Below are positions 844 to 14,930 of a DNA stretch of 64,000 nucleotides, in pieces. The DNA lies in the NCBI RefSeq assembly GCF_041886205.1, contig NZ_CP169029.1. The stretch is one strand, 5' to 3'. Source of the stretch: Escherichia coli (GTDB lineage Bacteria > Pseudomonadota > Gammaproteobacteria > Enterobacterales > Enterobacteriaceae). The notes beneath the pieces are model-generated. The model did no database searches. It was not told the DNA's origin and saw nothing but the letters and a program-made list of their open reading frames with translations. Position 1 is the stretch's first letter. Every line of letters begins with the position of its first letter. Both the position numbers and the translations under genes were made by a program.

Positions 844-1848
844 ATGCAAGATACAGACGTTTACGTATACATAGGCGATGTTCACCGCTCTGGTCATCAC
901 GACATCACCAAAGCGATTAAAGAAAGAAAAACTAACCATGGTTTACAAAAAAATGTTCTTTTTTGCGTCGCTACCTATGGCGGTGATCCCAGCGCAGGAT
1001 ATAGAATTGGCCGCGCTTTGCAACACAACTATGAACACATCACCGTTCTAGTTGTTGGCCCTTGCAAAAGTGCTGGAACCTTGATGGCTGTCGCCGCTCA
1101 TAAGCTCGTGATTGGTGATATGGGTGAGCTTGGTCCTCTAGACATCCAACTTAAGAAAAATGATGAGATCGGCGAATTGAGCTCGGGCCTTGTTATCGCA
1201 ACGGCGATTGATGAAATAAAAGAGTGCGCTATTTCGACCTTTAGATCATACGTACTTGATATAAAGTACAGAAACCAAATTAGCACGAAGATGTCTGCAG
1301 ATATTGCTGCTAAGCTTACTGAAGCAATCATATCGCCGATGGCCTCACAGATAGACCCCATCAAACTCGGGGAGCATCAACGAGCAATGAACATAGCGCT
1401 TTCCTATGGGGAGCGTTTGAATAGTCACTCGAAAAATCTTAAGGAAAGCTCCTTAGGCAAGTTGATCGCTGGATATCCAGCCCATGGTTTTGTGATAGAC
1501 CGTAAAGAGGCGAGGGAACTATTCAACCATGTTGAGAGTCCTACAGACTTTGCAGCCAACCTGTACGAAGTTCTTGGTGAGATGATTTCGTCAGGCGAAA
1601 TCTCTATCTTCGACAAACCGGTGATTAAAGATTTAACTCCTAAAAAACAATATGAAACAACTAACGCAGAGGAAGATTCCCATGACAACAGCAGAATTCA
1701 GGAAGGAGATGAAATCTCTGACCAAAATTCAGGAAGAGCAGAACCGCCAAGGGATGAACCTGTCCAGGGAAGCGATGGAAAACATGCGGAAATTGAAGAA
1801 GAGGCTGGAACCTTACCAGCAGAGCAACCAGATGAAGGCACTCAGTGA
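844..1848 (+). CDS. ClpP/S49-fold serine peptidase-like protein with long acidic C-terminal tail (cargo gene)
   Basis: 334-aa ORF; N-terminal region with GPCKSAGT motif resembling the ClpP nucleophile loop; C-terminus rich in D/E; AT-rich relative to flanks. Confidence 0.45.
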   Translation: MQDTDVYVYIGDVHRSGHHDITKAIKERKTNHGLQKNVLFCVATYGGDPSAGYRIGRALQHNYEHITVLVVGPCKSAGTLMAVAAHKLVIGDMGELGPLDIQLKKNDEIGELSSGLVIATAIDEIKECAISTFRSYVLDIKYRNQISTKMSADIAAKLTEAIISPMASQIDPIKLGEHQRAMNIALSYGERLNSHSKNLKESSLGKLIAGYPAHGFVIDRKEARELFNHVESPTDFAANLYEVLGEMISSGEISIFDKPVIKDLTPKKQYETTNAEEDSHDNSRIQEGDEISDQNSGRAEPPRDEPVQGSDGKHAEIEEEAGTLPAEQPDEGTQ

Positions 1849-1871
1849 ATATTGTAGTTTCTGATTGAGGA

Positions 1872-1900
1872 CCTCGGCTACTACGCCGGGGTCTCTTTTT
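1872..1900 (+). terminator. Putative intrinsic terminator downstream of 844-1848
   Basis: GC stem ~7 bp (cctcggc / gccgggg) with 6-nt loop followed by tctcttttt. Confidence 0.45.
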
Positions 1901-2280
1901 ACATCACTGGGCAGTCATCAAACTCCGCATTCCTAGCATCGTGATGATGTACGTGATTGCTCCGAATATTGAGTGTGAGTAATTGTAGCCACCACCATCA
2001 TCTGGCAGTGCTTCCGTTCTCCAGATTTATCAGGTGGGACTAAGGATGAGTACGATATCGCTTAATCCTGAAACTCCATTTCAGACAGGGACCCTATTAC
2101 AGACCGAAAGACCACAGATAAGTAGTTTGTTCATAAATTAATGCGTAGAATCAATAACGGCTGGAAATCATTCAATACTCGCACTATCGAAAGTTCGCCA
2201 GCCAGCCGCAGCACGTTCTTGCATACGACGTGGCTGCGGCTTCCAACATTAGACAAATAACTCTTTAAATTGCTTTTAAA

Positions 2281-4018: not shown

Positions 4019-4442
4019 GCCATTCAATATCTGGCGCACTGGAGGTATCAACCAGCTCCAGTGCATCCAGATAATCCAGCCACAAATTATATTGCGCCAG
4101 TTCCTCACCTTTCAGACGACCAATAGCGGCTTTACCGGGCCATTGCTTACTGTTCATGTATTCGTTGGCCTGGTTAATTAGTAGCTGTCTTTCTGATTCA
4201 GTAATTTCAATAAGCTCTTCATGCGTGGGTGGAGGAATATCTGCCCACGCAGGCAGCCCATCATCTCCGGCAATACGGATTTTTCCTTGTGGCGGTTCAG
4301 CCATAAACTCACTGATAATATTTTGATTTACTTCCTTAGCGTCTGATAAATCCCATCCCTCTGATTTATATTTATCAATCATATCCACAGGGAAAAAAGC
4401 ATTATGCCTTGCGCTATAAACATATTCGTTCATATAAATCAC
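3990..4442 (-). CDS. Tail fibre assembly protein (Tfa, active cassette)
   Basis: 150 aa; C-terminal ...PDIEWPTPP; 3' end overlaps convergent tfa' by 29 nt. Confidence 0.75.
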   Translation of the reverse strand: MIYMNEYVYSARHNAFFPVDMIDKYKSEGWDLSDAKEVNQNIISEFMAEPPQGKIRIAGDDGLPAWADIPPPTHEELIEITESERQLLINQANEYMNSKQWPGKAAIGRLKGEELAQYNLWLDYLDALELVDTSSAPDIEWPTPPAVQAR

Positions 4443-4453
4443 CCTGAATAAAA

Positions 4454-5116
4454 TTACTCACCAACAGCCCACCAACTGTAATTCATCGATACCGTGTCGC
4501 TGGTTGATGACGTTCTGTAAGCAGAATTAAAGCCGGTTAACGTTGGGCCTTCTGCAGTCATCACGAACCCTCGCCCAGCGCCTAAAGGCGCACCGCCATC
4601 ACCAGAATGAGTAAGCATGGCGCAGTCCGCTTTTTTGGGGAAAGGGATGCTGAATGTAATTCTCATTGTTTGCGTCGATAATGTCGGCGTAACCGCACCA
4701 CGACCATATTGCAGGATTTTCCCGTTGGGTAATTTCATCCATCCATCACCACTGGCAAAAGAGGCCATGTCCGGTATCTGATTTTCCCCTGTCCCCACAT
4801 CCCGTTTTGCCGCTTCTCCCAAACCAAGGTTTTCGAGAGCCGTTTTCACCGTGCCATCCGATTTGATATCGCCAAACGGATTCTTGCGGCTTAACAGCAG
4901 CGCACGAAGCGCGGTAAGCAGCTGGTCATGCCGCCCCTTCTCCAGGCTGGCACCGGATGCCTCCACCACGCTGCAAAGTTCCTCCTGCAACATGTCAAAG
5001 TAGTCATCATCCAGATCGGTGGCAGGCGTGCCGGTCTGGGGGTTACCACGGGTAAAACCGTTCTTACCCGCGCCGAACTTATCCTTCTGCGCGGTTTTCG
5101 TGTCTATACGATGCAT
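4454..5116 (-). CDS. Tail fibre protein (constant N-terminal part + current variable C-terminus)
   Basis: 220 aa; crossover site B lies in frame inside the gene (encodes [11 protein letters not shown]). Confidence 0.7.
4814..4839. other. Invertase crossover site B (gix/hix-like)
   Basis: ttctcccaaacc-aa-ggttttcgagag, close to recalled gix/hix consensus; inside tail fibre gene. Confidence 0.7.
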
Positions 5117-7713: not shown

Positions 7714-8792
7714 CAGAACGGGTCCTCCTGTACTCTGGCTTTTTTCTTTTTCCGCGCGCCGGGGTCTTCAGGTTCAGGCAGATAAGCATCAGGCGGGCCG
7801 ACACGGATTTCCGTCAGGGTGCCGTTCTGGTCCTGAGTAAACGTGACTTCCGAAACAAGCAGTTCGGTATTTTCGAAACCACAGACCGGATCAAAGACAA
7901 TCACCCGCTGGTTGGGCTGCCACAGCGTACCGTTACCCTGTCGCCAGCCCTGCACCACATAGGTGGTTTCATCCGTCCGCGCCGCCCGTTGTCGGGCTTC
8001 AAAGTCCGCACGGGCAATACAGCCTGCCCCCGTAGCCTGCCCTGTCTGCCTGATATACATCGGACGGTAACGGGCAATAAATGCGTCCTCTGTGCGGGCC
8101 CGCAGCGCGGTGGTGGTGGCCTCACCGAAATCATCGTCGTTTCCGGCACGCTGCCCCGCCACCTGGTAAACAGAAAACCGCTCCCGGATACTCTTCTCCG
8201 TATCGCAGGAAAGGATGTTTTCCCCAAGTACCAGCGCGGTATGTGCCCGCGTTGAGCCAATACCGCCAATCACCAGCCTGCCGTGCGGGTCGTCATAAGC
8301 CAGCGCCTGCTGCTGACCGAGTATTTTGTTAATCACCTCGATCACCGTTTCACCGTGATCAGGCTGGACATCAGGAATAACACCCGACGGCGCACCGCTG
8401 TTCACCACCTCAATACCGAAGGGCGCAGCAAGCGCCTGCGCAATCTGTACCAGTGATCGTCCGTTAAACTGTGTCGGTTCGGCTGCACAATCAATCAGGT
8501 CAGCGGTCAGACTGCGTCCGGCAATACCGGTGCTGACCGAACGGGCATCGTAACGAACGGGCGTCGCCTCCACCCAGCCGGTGATCACCAGCTCATCACC
8601 AATCAGCACCTCCACTTTTGAACCGTTTTTAATGCGCGGCTGAAGCATGGTGATACCCTCATCACCCGGCCACTGGCGAGTGATCTCCACACTGAAATCC
8701 CGCGCCAGCCGTTCAATACCGGCACCGATGCGCACCGATGTCCAGCCATTCCACTCCCGGCCATTTACCCGTAGCGTGACATTGTCGTTCAT
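7713..8792 (-). CDS. Mu gpP-like tail/baseplate hub protein
   Basis: 359 aa; follows DNA circulation protein as in Mu-like tails. Confidence 0.65.
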   Translation of the reverse strand: MNDNVTLRVNGREWNGWTSVRIGAGIERLARDFSVEITRQWPGDEGITMLQPRIKNGSKVEVLIGDELVITGWVEATPVRYDARSVSTGIAGRSLTADLIDCAAEPTQFNGRSLVQIAQALAAPFGIEVVNSGAPSGVIPDVQPDHGETVIEVINKILGQQQALAYDDPHGRLVIGGIGSTRAHTALVLGENILSCDTEKSIRERFSVYQVAGQRAGNDDDFGEATTTALRARTEDAFIARYRPMYIRQTGQATGAGCIARADFEARQRAARTDETTYVVQGWRQGNGTLWQPNQRVIVFDPVCGFENTELLVSEVTFTQDQNGTLTEIRVGPPDAYLPEPEDPGARKKKKARVQEDPF

Positions 8793-10162
8793 TGCACTGG
8801 CACCTTCAGAGGGATCACCGGCACAAAGCCGGGATGCGTAATGGCATTACGCCGGATAATGTCCGCGTCACGCGCCGCGTTATCAAACCAGGTCGCTGCC
8901 AGCACCAGCGCGGGTAAAACCTCATCCGGTGTGCGCTGAATGATCCGTGCAGACTGTTCAAGGCGCGTGTTGATATCCGCATTCAGATCTGCTTTCACCC
9001 GGCGCAGCGCCAGAAACAGCGCATCACTGGTTGTACGGGACAACTCCTTATCAATTGCCGTATTCAGTGTGTCGCGAATGTCAGTCAGTTCTTCCCACGT
9101 CGGCAGGTCAACCGTGTTTTTCACCGCCGGTGCATTGTTCAGTGCCGGATGCGTGACGGAAGGCCAGCCAGTGCTCTGCGCGGGTGTTGTTGCCTGCCCC
9201 ACTGCGGAATTCTGCATCACCGCGGAAGTTGTTGGCGCAGGCAATCGGGTGACGGCATACGCCGCTTCGCTGATTGCGGTCGTACGAAGGGTGCTGGCAA
9301 CCACGTTACGCTGCTGCGTAGCCGTGGCGGTGGTTTTACTGTCCGTTTTCCAGACGCCGCGCGGTTGCAGATCGCTGCCGAGGCTGACACCGGAAAGCGT
9401 TTTGATCATGGTGACCAGGTCGCTGGCGTTACCATAAAGGCGTTTCCCGGTACGCCACATTTTCTGCACCTGCTCAACGAAATTTTTGCCTGACGATGGC
9501 GGCGGCAGAAGTACCGAGATATCCCCCTGTAACAGCCTGGCGGCATCCGATACGGCAGAATCCACCACTTTCATCGCATCAGAAACATACCCCAGCATTA
9601 TGCTGGCATTACCGATAACGTCGTTCTGCACGAAATCCGCCACACCATCGATACTGAAACCGCTGAAGCTGTCACTGATGCAGTCATCCAGTGCAGAACA
9701 GGATGACATCAGCGTCTGCGCCGTCGCCGCACCTGATGTGGGGTAAGAGAGCTCTCCTGCTTCGACAAACTTCAGGTCAAAGCGGACAATACGTCCTTCA
9801 CTTTTCGATGTGCTGACCCGAACTTCCCCGTCAACACAGACTTTCAGCTCACCGTATGTCGGATGGACAAGCGTGCCGGGACCGGGTTTATTCAGCGCGT
9901 CAATCAGGCGATCGCGCTGGTCAAAACAGTCATCTCCCACCACATAAGCCGTGATGGACGGGCGGAAAGTGATTTTCCCCAGGTCTTCGGTATAGGGTTT
10001 GTCGCGGTTCGGGTATTCATGTGTTTCTACACGGCGACCGGTTCCCGCACTTTCTTCTTCAACCTTAAACGGCACACCTCGAAATGATGCTTCAAGTAGC
10101 TTTTCACGCCAGCCACTTCGAGAATCAGAGGATAGGTACGAAGAAATATGAGAAAAATCCAT
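8789..10162 (-). CDS. DNA circulation protein (Mu gpN-like)
   Basis: 457 aa; N-terminal ...WREKLLEASFRGVPFKVEEE...GRRVETHEYPNRDKPYTEDLG motif recalled from Mu N family. Confidence 0.75.
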   Translation of the reverse strand: MDFSHISSYLSSDSRSGWREKLLEASFRGVPFKVEEESAGTGRRVETHEYPNRDKPYTEDLGKITFRPSITAYVVGDDCFDQRDRLIDALNKPGPGTLVHPTYGELKVCVDGEVRVSTSKSEGRIVRFDLKFVEAGELSYPTSGAATAQTLMSSCSALDDCISDSFSGFSIDGVADFVQNDVIGNASIMLGYVSDAMKVVDSAVSDAARLLQGDISVLLPPPSSGKNFVEQVQKMWRTGKRLYGNASDLVTMIKTLSGVSLGSDLQPRGVWKTDSKTTATATQQRNVVASTLRTTAISEAAYAVTRLPAPTTSAVMQNSAVGQATTPAQSTGWPSVTHPALNNAPAVKNTVDLPTWEELTDIRDTLNTAIDKELSRTTSDALFLALRRVKADLNADINTRLEQSARIIQRTPDEVLPALVLAATWFDNAARDADIIRRNAITHPGFVPVIPLKVPVQ

Positions 10163-10176
10163 GGCGTCACCTCAAA

Positions 10177-10207
10177 TAAAAACCGCGTGTAAACGCGGTT
10201 TTTTATT
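10177..10207 (-). terminator. Intrinsic terminator (symmetrical, A-run/T-run flanked) after moron gene
   Basis: aaaaaccgcg-tgtaaa-cgcggtttttt perfect hairpin. Confidence 0.7.
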
Positions 10208-10218
10208 AGGTAATAAAA

Positions 10219-10707
10219 TTAACGATCATAATCAACATTATGAGTATCTATTCTACATGATGAATAAGTAATTCCGCTTTCACCACTAATATTTACGCCA
10301 GCCTTTACCTTCCCTGTTTTCGTAACATCAACAAAGAATTGCCCTCTTGGCATTTTAAATGCAAAAGAGAAACCAATAATTTCCGAGTCAAAGTTATTTT
10401 CATCCTCACTAATTGGTACAATAAAAGTCAATGGTGCAGATTGTGAGTTATTTTCAAAATCAAAAGCACCAATGCTTTTATTAAACTCGTAGGATGCTTT
10501 TTTTATTAAAAGAGTTCCACTTGCCGACTTTGCTGGGCATATTACATACAGTCTATTTATTCCCTCTACATCTAGATCTATATTCTTATCCGCTGAAGTT
10601 TTAACGTTATCTATAAAGTATGTAGCAAGCTGCTTTTCCGTTACTGGCTTCGCAAAGGAGTTTAATGGCAGTCCTACAGCCAACAACAATATAAACATTT
10701 TCTTCAT
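10219..10707 (-). CDS. Moron: secreted/periplasmic protein of unknown function (signal peptide MKKMFILLLAVGLPLNSFA)
   Basis: AT-rich ORF inserted between tape-measure and DNA-circulation genes; own terminator; N-terminal hydrophobic signal with SFA cleavage motif; ORF-track start 10740 probably upstream of true start. Confidence 0.6.
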   Translation of the reverse strand: MKKMFILLLAVGLPLNSFAKPVTEKQLATYFIDNVKTSADKNIDLDVEGINRLYVICPAKSASGTLLIKKASYEFNKSIGAFDFENNSQSAPLTFIVPISEDENNFDSEIIGFSFAFKMPRGQFFVDVTKTGKVKAGVNISGESGITYSSCRIDTHNVDYDR

Positions 10708-10771
10708 ATTCTCTCCTACATTCAGCACAAACTTTACCACTCAATAACCCTACTTGATTAAAGTAGTTATA

Positions 10772-12673
10772 TTATCGTCTGAATGGAGAATACCCCACAT
10801 CGTGCGTGATTTTCATCAGGGGATCGGCTTTGCCCGGTACATCAATTATCTTCATACCTGGCGGAGCATTCTCGAACGTGACTTTCAGCTCGCTGTGCTG
10901 TGTCATGGAAGAAGATGGATTCAACAGCGGAACATTGGGTTTGTACTGACTCAGGCTGGCCTGATACTGCTCGTACTCTTTACGATCAAAAAAAGGCGTC
11001 CAGTCTGAAGCCAGAAACAGCCCTTTATTATCCAGCCAGTTAACCGTATCTTCAGGAACAACACTTTCCAGAGTATCTTTAACCGGCTCATACATCAGGG
11101 TTCCCAGAAAACCATATACCCCGGCCTTCCCGATAAAGCCGCGCCCTTTCCCCATCAATCCCGTTTCTGCCGATACCTTCCCCAGCGTACGCATCTCTCT
11201 GGTCACTGCGGTAATGGATTTGGTAACGTCAGCAACCCATTTGGTTGCCATAAACAGGGCAATCGCTTTCAGAACAGTTTCCCATCCCCCCATCGCCTGC
11301 GCCGTTTCATCCACCACGTGCCAGACTTTTTTTATGACAGGACCTACGGTTTCCCAATTATCAATAATGAGGTAAGCGCCACCAACCAGAAGAGCAATCA
11401 GCCCCTTAGCAGGCGTCATATTCATCACACCGCCGAGAACTTTCATGATTCTGGACAAAGAGCCTGCAGCGGCCCCCACTGTCAGTAAAGCCAGACCGAT
11501 TTTAGCAATGGTCTTAACGAGCTCCGGGTTTTCACGGACAAACGTTCTCACTTCCTCAAGGAGCGGTTTTACCGCTTCAAGACCATCATTAACCTCAGGA
11601 AGAAACGTTTCCCCCAGAGTGGAAGAAATGGCATCAAGTTGATTTTGCAGAAGTAAAAGCTGGTTTTCCGTCGTCGCTGCCCTCGAAGCATATTCCTTCT
11701 GCATCGAACTGCCATACTGCTGGGAATCCGCAACCCGCCTGAAGTTGGTACGCAACAAATCAAGGTTAGTCAGCAGAGGTGCTATCGCGCCCAGAGACTC
11801 TTTCCCGAACAGGGCATTCAGCACAGCTGCCTGTTTTTCTTTAGGCACTTTAGACATCGCATCCAGTACAGACAGCATGGTTCCCCGGGCATCTTTCTGC
11901 ATATCAGCAGCTAATTTCTTCGGATTGATCCGCAGAAAACGTAATGCCTGTTTCTGCGATTTTGTCGCGGAATTTCCCGCGGTCAGGGAAAGCATGAAGT
12001 TCTTGATCCCTGTGGCGGCAATTTCTGACTCCACGCCCATCCCGGCAATGGTTGCCCCCATTGCCGCGATTTCGCCGGAAGCCACACCTGCAACACCACC
12101 TAAAGGACCAATACGCGTAACAATATCGGAGATTTTCTTCGCATTCGCCGGACCGGTATTACCAAGGTAGTTGATTTTGTCAGCCAGCCCGGCCACTTCA
12201 TCCTGCGTCATATTAAACGCAGTACGCCACTGGGCCATCATCTGCCCGGACTCTTCAGCCGTGGTATCAAAGGCCACGCCCATCTTCACCGCATCAGTGG
12301 CAAACTGCATCAGTTCATCACGTGCAATCCCGGCCTGACCGCCAGCCGCCACAATTTCCGCGATCCCGTCTGCAGACATGGGAAGCTCAGTAGACAAAGC
12401 GCGTACCTGCTCCGTCATGGCCTTAAACGCATCCGGCGTATCCAGACCGTCCACCACTTTGCGGACATCAGCCATCTTCGATTCAAGGGTGATGGCTGAT
12501 TTTACAGGGAGTGCCAGTGCCCCCATTATTGCAGTACCCGCCCCGGCAGCGCCCAGAGCAAGGCTGGAGACTTCTTTCTGAAACCCCTTAAGCTGACGCT
12601 GCATACCTTTAAGCGGGCCGGATAGCCTGTCAACGGCGGTGATGATGGCTTTCAGCTGAAAATTATCAGCCAT
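10772..12673 (-). CDS. Tail tape measure protein
   Basis: 633 aa, Ala/Gly-rich with hydrophobic central segments, located after tail tube/chaperone. Confidence 0.8.
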   Translation of the reverse strand: MADNFQLKAIITAVDRLSGPLKGMQRQLKGFQKEVSSLALGAAGAGTAIMGALALPVKSAITLESKMADVRKVVDGLDTPDAFKAMTEQVRALSTELPMSADGIAEIVAAGGQAGIARDELMQFATDAVKMGVAFDTTAEESGQMMAQWRTAFNMTQDEVAGLADKINYLGNTGPANAKKISDIVTRIGPLGGVAGVASGEIAAMGATIAGMGVESEIAATGIKNFMLSLTAGNSATKSQKQALRFLRINPKKLAADMQKDARGTMLSVLDAMSKVPKEKQAAVLNALFGKESLGAIAPLLTNLDLLRTNFRRVADSQQYGSSMQKEYASRAATTENQLLLLQNQLDAISSTLGETFLPEVNDGLEAVKPLLEEVRTFVRENPELVKTIAKIGLALLTVGAAAGSLSRIMKVLGGVMNMTPAKGLIALLVGGAYLIIDNWETVGPVIKKVWHVVDETAQAMGGWETVLKAIALFMATKWVADVTKSITAVTREMRTLGKVSAETGLMGKGRGFIGKAGVYGFLGTLMYEPVKDTLESVVPEDTVNWLDNKGLFLASDWTPFFDRKEYEQYQASLSQYKPNVPLLNPSSSMTQHSELKVTFENAPPGMKIIDVPGKADPLMKITHDVGYSPFRR

Positions 12674-12757
12674 GCTTCATCTCCTCATTTATACGGACGG
12701 CCTCTGCCTCCAGATCAGCAAAGTGGGAAATAGCCGTCCGGCGAAGTTCAAGGGGGT

Positions 12758-13081
12758 TTAATTTCCAGAACCACGCGACATTGTAGAATCGCTTCCGGAG
12801 GTCTCTTCCGTCTCCAAGCCGGTAAAAAAACGCATTACAATCATGCCTGCCTTGAAAATATCCAGCTTCGTCATCTGCGCTGCAGACGAGCGCGGGATCC
12901 CGGCCAGAAGCGGGATATATTTCAGCGCTACCTGACTGTCCATTTTCATACCACCATCAGGCGAAACAGAGAAAGGGAACCCCAGCGCCTCAATCTCGTC
13001 ATACGTAGGCTCACGTATTTCCAGCACATGCAGTGTTTCTTTGTGGGCGATGATCGGTTTTTTAAGTACAAGCTCAATCAC
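12758..13081 (-). CDS. Tail assembly chaperone-like protein
   Basis: 107 aa between tube and tape measure. Confidence 0.5.
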   Translation of the reverse strand: MIELVLKKPIIAHKETLHVLEIREPTYDEIEALGFPFSVSPDGGMKMDSQVALKYIPLLAGIPRSSAAQMTKLDIFKAGMIVMRFFTGLETEETSGSDSTMSRGSGN

Positions 13082-13434
13082 TGGTAATCCCCTTCTTCAC
13101 CGTGGAACTCAAGATCAACCGTACCTTCTTCGGCATTATGGTTCGCTTCGCCGTGCAGCCAGGCTGACGACAATACATAGACCTGACCGTTCGCCAGCTC
13201 GGCAGTGATGGTCATCTCATCAGACGAGGTGATTTTGCTCACCGGAAAATTCTTCGGCACCTTGAAGGTCCCTTTGACATAAGGCGCACGGTGAGTTTCC
13301 TTGCGGTCCACTGAACCGTCCAGGCCGATGATGTCATCATTGACCGTCCTGTTCATGGGCACCTCAATGCCGCCGGTCAGCGATAGCTGCTGACCGTCAA
13401 TTTTGAAATAACAGGTTCCCCCGATACGGGCCAT
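13078..13434 (-). CDS. Tail tube protein (Mu gpM-like)
   Basis: 118 aa immediately after sheath gene, overlapping stop/start. Confidence 0.7.
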   Translation of the reverse strand: MARIGGTCYFKIDGQQLSLTGGIEVPMNRTVNDDIIGLDGSVDRKETHRAPYVKGTFKVPKNFPVSKITSSDEMTITAELANGQVYVLSSAWLHGEANHNAEEGTVDLEFHGEEGDYQ

Positions 13435-14930
13435 TATGCAGACTCCTCTGAATACTGAAGACGGAACTGGTTAACCACGGCAAAGACACGCAACTGGTTA
13501 ACATAGTCAGGCGGGAACAGCGTGTTCAGGCGGTTCGGATCGCTGGCATCACGCTCCACAACCAGGTACTGCTTAAACAGTTCGTAGTTTTCCACGATCC
13601 CCGCACGCTCAAGCTGACGGTAGGTTGCCAGCAGTTCCCCTTTGATTACCGCCGGAGTGACAATCGCCTGACCGGGACCAAAGCGGGTACCGTCGCTGGC
13701 AAGCTTGTGACGCCCGTACTTACTGGTAATGACGGATTTCAGTTTGCGCAGTACATACGCACTGGTATGCAGCGTCTCGCTGTCGAGGTAGCTGTTATCC
13801 GCAACCCCGTAAGCATTTTTCCTGTACGTGGTGACATCACGCTGAATGCGCAGCACCCCGCTTTCGACATACGCCGTTGCCACGCCATGAGACAGCAGGG
13901 TCTGTTGCTCGGTCATCGTGAACCGTTTCCCCTTCGGCGCAGGCAGCATCCCCACCAGCTCACCGGTCTGCGTGGGACGTGCCGGATCGTTGCGAATAAA
14001 CACAGCTGCGCGGGCGGTACGGCTTGCCGCCAGCTCGTCGGCTGGCGTCTGAGTGTCTTTTTCGTATCCCGCCAGGGTAATGTGCTGCTGGTTAAACTGG
14101 TCACCTGCGGTCACCAGTTCTGACAGCGTGCCGATCTTTGCCGTATACACATGACCATACAGCTGACGCGCATAGCTCCAGCGACCGCTGGTATCGTTCA
14201 TCTCGGTCACCAGCGTGTTAACGGAGGCCGTGTCGTTGAACGGCAGGCCGATATAATCAAACGGCTCATCCGCCATTGCAGCCACCGCGCCGGTGAGAAC
14301 AGGAGCGCCCGTTCCGGCGGTACCCGTCGCCACGGCAATCTGTACGCCCGCTGGCAGCACTTCGCCCCCACCAAAGCCGTAGTAATTGAGGCTGACAGGA
14401 ATTTCATTCCCGCAAAGCCCCTTATGACGCGCGGTCAGTGTGACCACGCCTGCCGAAGATGAGGCCGTAAACGGCAGGGCCGGAACGGCATTAATGGCAT
14501 CCTGGATACTGCTGGCAATCGTCGCGACGTTATCGCCGTTGGTCACCGGTGCCTGCACGCGGGTACGTCCCACATAAACATTCACCGTGCCAGTTTCGGT
14601 TGCCGCCCCGGTCACCGTCAGCGTAACCGTTGCCGCCGCGCCTGTGGCTTCCGGAACGGCAATCACATACAGCTCGCCAAACGGGTCGGTCTGGCGATAA
14701 GCCTCGACCATACGCGCCAGCTGACTTCCCGCACCACAAATCTGGCGTGCATAGTCTGCCGACGGCATCAGCACCAGACTGTTGGCAACAATCTCTGCAC
14801 CGTTATTGGCGTGACCAATCAGCAACGATGCCCCGCTGTCCTGTGCAGTATTCGCCGCCTGGTTATCCATTTCCGCATAAAACAGCGGAACCAGCGTATT
14901 CGACGGAATGGTGTTAAAGCTTATCGTCAT
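13434..14930 (-). CDS. Contractile tail sheath protein (Mu gpL-like)
   Basis: 498 aa; size/synteny. Confidence 0.8.
   Translation of the reverse strand: MTISFNTIPSNTLVPLFYAEMDNQAANTAQDSGASLLIGHANNGAEIVANSLVLMPSADYARQICGAGSQLARMVEAYRQTDPFGELYVIAVPEATGAAATVTLTVTGAATETGTVNVYVGRTRVQAPVTNGDNVATIASSIQDAINAVPALPFTASSSAGVVTLTARHKGLCGNEIPVSLNYYGFGGGEVLPAGVQIAVATGTAGTGAPVLTGAVAAMADEPFDYIGLPFNDTASVNTLVTEMNDTSGRWSYARQLYGHVYTAKIGTLSELVTAGDQFNQQHITLAGYEKDTQTPADELAASRTARAAVFIRNDPARPTQTGELVGMLPAPKGKRFTMTEQQTLLSHGVATAYVESGVLRIQRDVTTYRKNAYGVADNSYLDSETLHTSAYVLRKLKSVITSKYGRHKLASDGTRFGPGQAIVTPAVIKGELLATYRQLERAGIVENYELFKQYLVVERDASDPNRLNTLFPPDYVNQLRVFAVVNQFRLQYSEESA

Follow-up and report, generated by a model that had tools for sequence, protein, structure and literature searches.

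A frameshift in the tail assembly chaperone gene is a well-known strategy of phages such as P2 and lambda, yet it is unannotated in all public records examined for the group of phages to which SfIV, ST64B and phiP27 belong. The P2 record annotates the E protein (91 aa), a joined E+E' product with a 'site of −1 translational frameshift' on a T6G run, and the T gene, the frameshift itself being credited to Christie 2002 in PMC3931495. For P2-like phages of Stenotrophomonas and Xanthomonas (Smp131), chaperone sites of the T7G and T7C types have been proposed by analogy with P2 (PMC3931495); these phages form a separate lineage of true P2-likes, and their sites are likewise predicted. In lambda, a siphovirus, a short product (gpG) and a −1 extended product (gpGT) are made from the heptamer G_GGA_AAG, and for the tail chaperone of Mu a −2 frameshift has been reported (PMC5009743). 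Here we describe a locus in a stretch of 64,000 nt of Escherichia coli DNA (contig NZ_CP169029.1; the whole stretch is called the window below) that very probably carries a programmed −1 ribosomal frameshift of the G/GT type (P2 E/E+E' type), in a contractile-tail prophage of the SfIV/ST64B/phiP27 group. From the sequence comparisons presented below, we put the probability of this reading at roughly 0.88. The features of a G/GT-type site are found together at this locus: a position between the tube and tape-measure genes, a heptamer in phase, a shifted ORF devoid of a start codon, and conservation of both the site and the coding of the shifted frame. Biologically, this would be an ordinary representative of its type, with nothing new for recoding mechanisms; the main value of its description is the correction of annotations in a prophage type that is common in E. 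coli.

The tail operon and the probable slip site

The prophage in the window is of the SfIV-like type with a Mu-like tail; Shigella phage SfIV and prophages of E. coli match the window at 99% identity. All relevant genes lie on the minus strand and, based on the ORF list and Pfam, follow each other along transcription in the order sheath, tube, chaperone, tape measure and DNA circulation (Table 1). Of 5,426 complete E. coli genomes, 235 have the SfIV-type chaperone/tape-measure region (at least 80% of a 1-kb query present) and 1,094 a related tail module (part of the query present). The stop codon of the tube gene overlaps the GTG start of the chaperone gene (GTGA). The chaperone, which ends at a TAA (12760..12758), is a protein of 11.7 kDa with a pI of 5.3, named 'phage tail assembly protein' in RefSeq (WP_000571713.1). 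It scores 32.1 bits against PF10109 ('Phage tail assembly chaperone proteins, E, or 41 or 14', the P2 E / Mu gp41 family), above the gathering threshold of 25 bits that decides on membership, its residues 5–86 being aligned with profile positions 3–78 of 79. Between the chaperone stop and the tape-measure gene lie 84 nt that appear to be non-coding, and the Shine-Dalgarno sequence of the tape-measure gene, 7 nt before its ATG, falls within the putative −1 extension of the chaperone.

Table 1. Tail genes of the window and elements of the predicted frameshift locus
Feature	Coordinates	Strand	Basis or properties
Tail sheath	14930..13434	minus	PF04984, PF17482, PF17481
Tail tube, 118 aa	13434..13078	minus	PF10618 Tail_tube, E = 2.4e-33
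Tail assembly chaperone in the 0 frame (G/E-like product), 107 aa	13081..12758	minus	PF10109 Phage_TAC_7
Slippery heptamer T_TTT_TTT (mRNA U_UUU_UUU)	12830..12824	minus	in X_XXY_YYZ phase
Putative −1 extension (T/E'-like segment), 52 codons YRLGDGRDLRKRFYNVAWFWKLNPLELRRTAISHFADLEAEAVRINEEMKHG plus TGA	12666..12824	minus	frame reading, comparative coding signature
Predicted fusion CDS, 138 aa	complement(join(12666..12824,12824..13081))		15.9 kDa, pI 8.9
Tape-measure Shine-Dalgarno sequence GAGGAG	12681..12686	minus	read from sequence
Tail tape measure, 633 aa	12673..10772	minus	PF10145 PhageMin_Tail, E = 1.1e-42
DNA circulation gene	10162..8789	minus	PF07157

The heptamer consists of the last base of Arg84 (CGT) followed by Phe85 and Phe86, in the context ATG CGT TTT TTT ACC. 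It lies 66 nt before the 0-frame stop and coincides with the C-terminal edge of the PF10109 domain (residue 86). A −1 slip at this point gives ...GMIVMRFF and then YRLGDGRDLRKRFYNVAWFWKLNPLELRRTAISHFADLEAEAVRINEEMKHG, a segment from which FYNVAWFWK, LNPLELR and TAISHFADLEAEAVR are predicted as specific tryptic peptides. The −1 frame ends with ...EEMKHG and a TGA (12668..12666) that lies 3 nt past the tape-measure ATG (12673..12671), in an overlap of 8 nt (ATGGCTGA). The original prediction, made from this DNA alone, had seen the −1 frame open past the chaperone stop down to precisely this overlap, which we confirm. It had counted about 30 open codons from near the stop; the openness holds, but the length was underestimated, since the frame is open for 96 codons (12956..12669), 52 of them downstream of the slip site. 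In relatives, the frame is interrupted before the heptamer, and its openness there is not meaningful. The same prediction had found no X-XXY-YYZ heptamer, whereas the in-phase T_TTT_TTT is located 24 nt outside the interval that it covered. A second in-phase heptamer, C_CCT_TTC at codon 35, was rejected: the −1 frame closes 7 codons further on, and the motif is not conserved.

In the frameshift that we propose, most ribosomes would read the chaperone ORF to its TAA, which yields the 107-aa product. On a minority of ribosomes, with UUU UUU in the P and A sites, the two tRNA-Phe molecules that decode these codons would move back by one base on U_UUU_UUU and re-pair perfectly. Translation would then proceed through another 52 codons in the −1 frame and stop 8 nt into the tape-measure gene, for a fusion of 138 aa. 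If the two chaperone domains have the roles described for gpG and gpGT of lambda (PMC5009743), the tape-measure protein would be coated by the N-terminal domain common to both products, and the C-terminal domain encoded in the −1 frame would bring in the tube protein. Tail assembly would depend on a set ratio of the two products, and the virion would contain neither of them; the ratio of ~30:1 of lambda may not apply to the prophage of the window. We found no paper on SfIV, SfV, ST64B or phiP27 that reports two such products in a fixed ratio, both required for tail assembly.

Comparison with P2, lambda and Mu

The locus resembles that of P2 in several respects. P2 is a contractile-tail phage as well, with its site (G GTT TTT TG) in the FETUD tail operon, between the tube and tape-measure genes, in the same phase, at codon 84 (85 in the window) and with a shift in the same −1 direction. 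The PF10109 match ends at the slip site in both (residues 7–85 in P2 E+E', 5–86 in the window), and in both the downstream ORF lacks a start and its stop overlaps the start of the tape-measure gene (T in P2) by 8 nt. In addition, MAFFT sets P2 E' in register with the −1 peptides of the family found in the window. Yet the heptamer is T_TTT_TTG in P2 and T_TTT_TTT in the window, the 0-frame tail after the site counts 6 codons in P2 versus 21, and the tail module of the window is Mu-like (with the DNA circulation protein PF07157) rather than P2-like. No significant similarity was found by BLASTP between the fusion of the window and P2 E+E' (E = 4.8), so that P2 is linked to the window by the Pfam profile and by the geometry that the two sites have in common. 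When the −1 domain of four family members was compared to PF06528 (Phage_P2_GpE), there was no match at E ≤ 10, while P2 E' itself scores 76 bits; a profile–sequence alignment with hhalign gave a probability of only 20% and E = 1e-3, with the residues paired in the register that MAFFT had also returned. These alignments are suggestive of a possible homology between the −1 domain and P2 E'. The −1 peptide matched no family in Pfam or NCBIfam, and the family profile returned nothing meaningful among PDB sequences (best E = 0.27).

The likeness to lambda is one of organization: the same gene position, a short product and a −1 extended product that ends at the tape measure, and no stimulatory RNA structure as far as detectable in the window. 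The heptamer of lambda and its siphovirus morphology are different, and its proteins share no sequence homology with those of the window. Mu, in turn, has homologous neighbors (the sheath L, the tube M, DUF2635/gp38 and the DNA circulation protein). Its gp41 scores 24.7 bits on PF10109, just under the 25-bit cut-off, and is found in PF23746, whereas the window protein matches only PF10109 and not PF23746. In Mu (NC_000929; gp41 4053..4487, gp42 at 4632), gp41 has no in-phase T-run heptamer, and a T-like peptide (…ILKSGPEWALSLPL…) is encoded in the +1/−2 frame, which agrees with the −2 shift reported for this phage. The situation is opposite in the window, where the +1 frame is closed and the −1 frame open. 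Since the T-like ORF of Mu is in the +1/−2 frame, homologous Mu-like tail modules differ in the direction of recoding, and the sequences indicate that a Mu-like tail module such as that of the window can use a P2-style T-run −1 site instead of the −2 shift of Mu.

Conservation, coding signature and alternative readings

The pattern NNT TTT TTN is kept in phase, at codons 83–89, in 14 lineages that span E. coli/Shigella, Salmonella, Yersinia, Pantoea, Edwardsiella, Pseudomonas, Burkholderia and P2. The site reads CGT TTT TTT in the window and SfIV, in phiP27 and in the IMG/VR variant L086, AAT TTT TTT in ST64B and the IMG/VR variants L089 and L097, and GGT TTT TTT in Yersinia YeP1. It is GGT TTT TTC in SfV, Pantoea AH07, Edwardsiella EPP-1 and Burkholderia BgVeeders33, AGT TTT TTC in Pseudomonas DVM-2008, CCT TTT TTG in Pseudomonas PG1, and GGT TTT TTG in P2. 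The codon before the T-run encodes R, N, G, P or S, yet its third base is T in all 14 lineages. Among the SfIV/ST64B-type and SfV-type loci of IMG/VR, the site is intact in 78 of 80 and 77 of 80, respectively (155 of 160 overall), the exceptions being +1 indels that fuse both frames (T8, extra G) and one T-to-G substitution. The −1 peptide is steady in length in the enterobacterial relatives (52–53 codons, ending at the tape-measure start) and keeps the motifs Y/F-W-R/K-x-N-P and A-x-R-I in all relatives; its terminus RINEEMKHG, together with the overlap ATGGCTGA, is conserved in relatives, and its identity falls to 28–41% in phages of Yersinia, Pseudomonas and Burkholderia, where it is still conserved. 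The 0-frame tail past the site varies from 3 to 21 codons, is not conserved and is unrelated between subgroups. One record departs from this scheme: in Paraburkholderia phage IPK (PV588664, labeled UNVERIFIED; chaperone at 1495..1800), the site reads GGC TTC TTC, the −1 frame is closed after it, and a T-like ORF opens three codons before the 0-frame stop (GAG GGC GCG TAA). The T-run is missing from this record, which either contains an error or stems from a phage that shifts at another, non-canonical site.

The conservation of the site also bears on transcriptional slippage, in which the polymerase would stutter on the T7/A7 run and leave an extra U in some mRNAs, so that the same 138-aa fusion would arise. 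A single inserted U does yield an identical protein, as natural T8 variants show, and genes of E. coli contain UUUUUUU far less often than expected in each of the three phases, a shortage that has been ascribed in part to transcriptional slippage or indel mutation (PMC4066793). However, some homologues have just six Ts (T6C in the SfV group, Pseudomonas and Burkholderia, T6G in P2). Runs of six Ts are shorter than those known to support efficient polymerase slippage. Moreover, polymerase slippage does not depend on phase, yet the T-run stays constantly in X_XXY_YYZ phase; the codon in front of it ends in T throughout, although it encodes five different amino acids; and the P2 record labels its own site as a translational −1 frameshift (discussed in PMC3931495). 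We consider transcriptional slippage unlikely as the source of the fusion, although a minor contribution of it at the T7 run of the window is possible judging from the sequence.

The coding signature of the −1 frame was assessed in a gap-free comparison of the window to phiP27 and ST64B, at 74–78% nucleotide identity. Over the 84 nt past the 0-frame stop, 4, 3 and 19 variable columns fall on positions 1, 2 and 3 of the −1-frame codons (binomial p = 5e-5), and the ratio of synonymous to non-synonymous codon differences is 33/13 in the −1 frame, versus 4/50 when the 0 frame is read and 2/51 for the +1 frame (−1 versus 0, Fisher p = 1e-11). Within the 66 nt where the two frames overlap, the −1 frame is again the more constrained one, with 16:21 versus 9:29 synonymous to non-synonymous differences, and the trio of SfV, Pantoea AH07 and Edwardsiella EPP-1 gives the same picture (43:58 versus 9:95). 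Both the codon-position and the synonymous patterns indicate that the 'intergenic' 84 nt are translated in the −1 frame; as far as alignments can tell, their conjunction with conservation in relatives is not something that chance can explain.

A locus without any recoding, where only the 107-aa protein would be made and the open −1 frame would be accidental or kept by a constraint at the nucleotide level (tape-measure ribosome binding site, mRNA features), accords with the fact that no structure or stimulator was found, that no public record carries the join (0 of 14 examined), and that an open frame of 52 codons arises in 8% of shuffles, which makes openness weak evidence when taken alone. 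It conflicts with the third-position wobble and the synonymous excess, which are specific to the −1 frame over the 84-nt gap, as well as with the conservation of the −1 peptide and of the in-phase heptamer; the codon-position statistics rule out a frame left open by accident, and we regard the absence of recoding as very improbable. Least probable of all is an independent small gene in the −1 frame, a view encouraged by the weak match of the −1 peptide alone to PHROG 32181 (E = 4.8e-6), due to which some phage annotations call such ORFs separate genes, but the 96 open codons of the window contain no ATG, GTG or TTG other than an ATG 4 codons before the stop and the ORF list has no ORF of at least 30 aa in this frame, so that independent initiation is excluded and the −1 ORF can be reached only from the chaperone ORF.

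A programmed ribosomal frameshift that extends the tail chaperone, as put forward in the original prediction, is thus the reading favored by the heptamer, its place at the domain edge, the conservation, the coding evolution of the −1 frame and the lack of a start of its own. The idea had been rated as weak at the time and is now better supported, the heptamer being both present and conserved. A slippery sequence that varied among homologues had been named as an argument against it; the site turned out to be conserved in 14 lineages, with the UNVERIFIED IPK record as the one exception.

Efficiency, annotation and natural variants

In E. coli, the H_HH.U_UU.Y class of shift sites, which includes both U_UUU_UUU and U_UUU_UUC, is among the most efficient (PMC4066793), and U_UUU_UUU is the motif with the highest frameshifting among the U6N motifs (PMC4066793 Table S3). 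In that dataset, −1 shifting without a stimulator amounts to 0.33% for UUUUUUU and to 0.12% for both UUUUUUC and UUUUUUG, and reaches 10.2, 7.6 and 0.8%, respectively, with the IS3 pseudoknot. We looked for stimulatory elements of this kind around the heptamer. The downstream structure that had been proposed as a point to check was not found: the 86 nt from the heptamer fold at −19.2 kcal/mol, which equals the mean of shuffled sequences (z = 0.0), and the RNAalifold consensus of 9 relatives reaches only −1.8 kcal/mol, with no meaningful covariation. An Rfam scan of 12500..13200 returned nothing at E ≤ 1, and no SD-like stimulator is visible in the 17 nt upstream of the heptamer. With no stimulator detected, the basal efficiency could be low, and frameshifting could stay well under 1% unless context elements exist. 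A hairpin 24 nt downstream (UCAGAA…UUCUGG) is the only one that recurs; it shows no compensatory changes, lies in doubly coding sequence, and was rejected as a stimulator. We also observed that a (T)CGGAGACGG element, 9–18 nt downstream of the heptamer (12806..12815, minus strand), contains an SD-like GGAG and is conserved at the nucleotide level in all 8 aligned sequences of SfIV/phiP27/ST64B type, the window itself having TTGGAGACGG. The coding constraint from two frames may be enough to explain this conservation.

The 138-aa product is annotated in 0 of the 14 annotated public records examined, which include SfIV, SfV, SfI, phiP27, ST64B, F1055, AH07, EPP-1, YeP1, PG1, DVM-2008, BgVeeders33 and RefSeq E. 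coli. The genome paper of SfIV terms ORF-12 hypothetical and does not mention a frameshift, and this cluster is absent from the list of E. coli prophage candidates of Sharma et al. 2014. As a consequence, an essential tail-assembly protein is probably missing from the proteomes of these phages, and a coding stretch of 84–141 nt is labeled as intergenic.

The exact sequence of the fusion would be absent from databases were it not for a few assemblies with T8 in place of T7 at the slip site, namely E. coli GCA_024546825.1 and GCA_900449425.1 (positions 1501..1917), and IMG/VR contig L018. In these copies, the chaperone and the −1 extension form one ORF of 138 aa (WP_250113089.1, 'phage tail assembly protein'). 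Either the T8 run comes from an error in sequencing the homopolymer, or it marks a real 'GT-only' mutant; such a mutant should be tail-defective by analogy with lambda. Other IMG/VR contigs deviate at or near the same place: the two frames are fused by an extra G located 30 nt downstream of the heptamer in L019 (CCGGGAAAC) and directly before the T6 run in L100 and L101, while L120 (GGGTTTTTCC) has a broken heptamer of which a U_UUC tetramer is left. Wild fused variants thus amount to 2 E. coli assemblies and 1 IMG/VR contig with T8, and 3 contigs with a +1 indel at or near the site. They evoke a more speculative role of the T7 tract, beyond ribosomal slippage, as a heritable and reversible T7/T8 mutational switch or as a site of polymerase stuttering, which we hold to be quite improbable. 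If it were true, the prophage would flip between 'G plus a little GT' and 'GT only', and this would produce lysogen subpopulations able or unable to build tails.

A last observation concerns the gap between the tape-measure and DNA circulation genes of the window (10163..10771), which consists of ~600 bp at 34% GC versus ~50–55% in its flanks. This low-GC segment carries an ORF (10219..10740, minus strand) for a protein of 173 aa with a hydrophobic, signal-like N-terminus and without any match in Pfam. In SfIV, just 24 nt separate the same two genes, so that the segment resembles a moron-type insertion within this operon.
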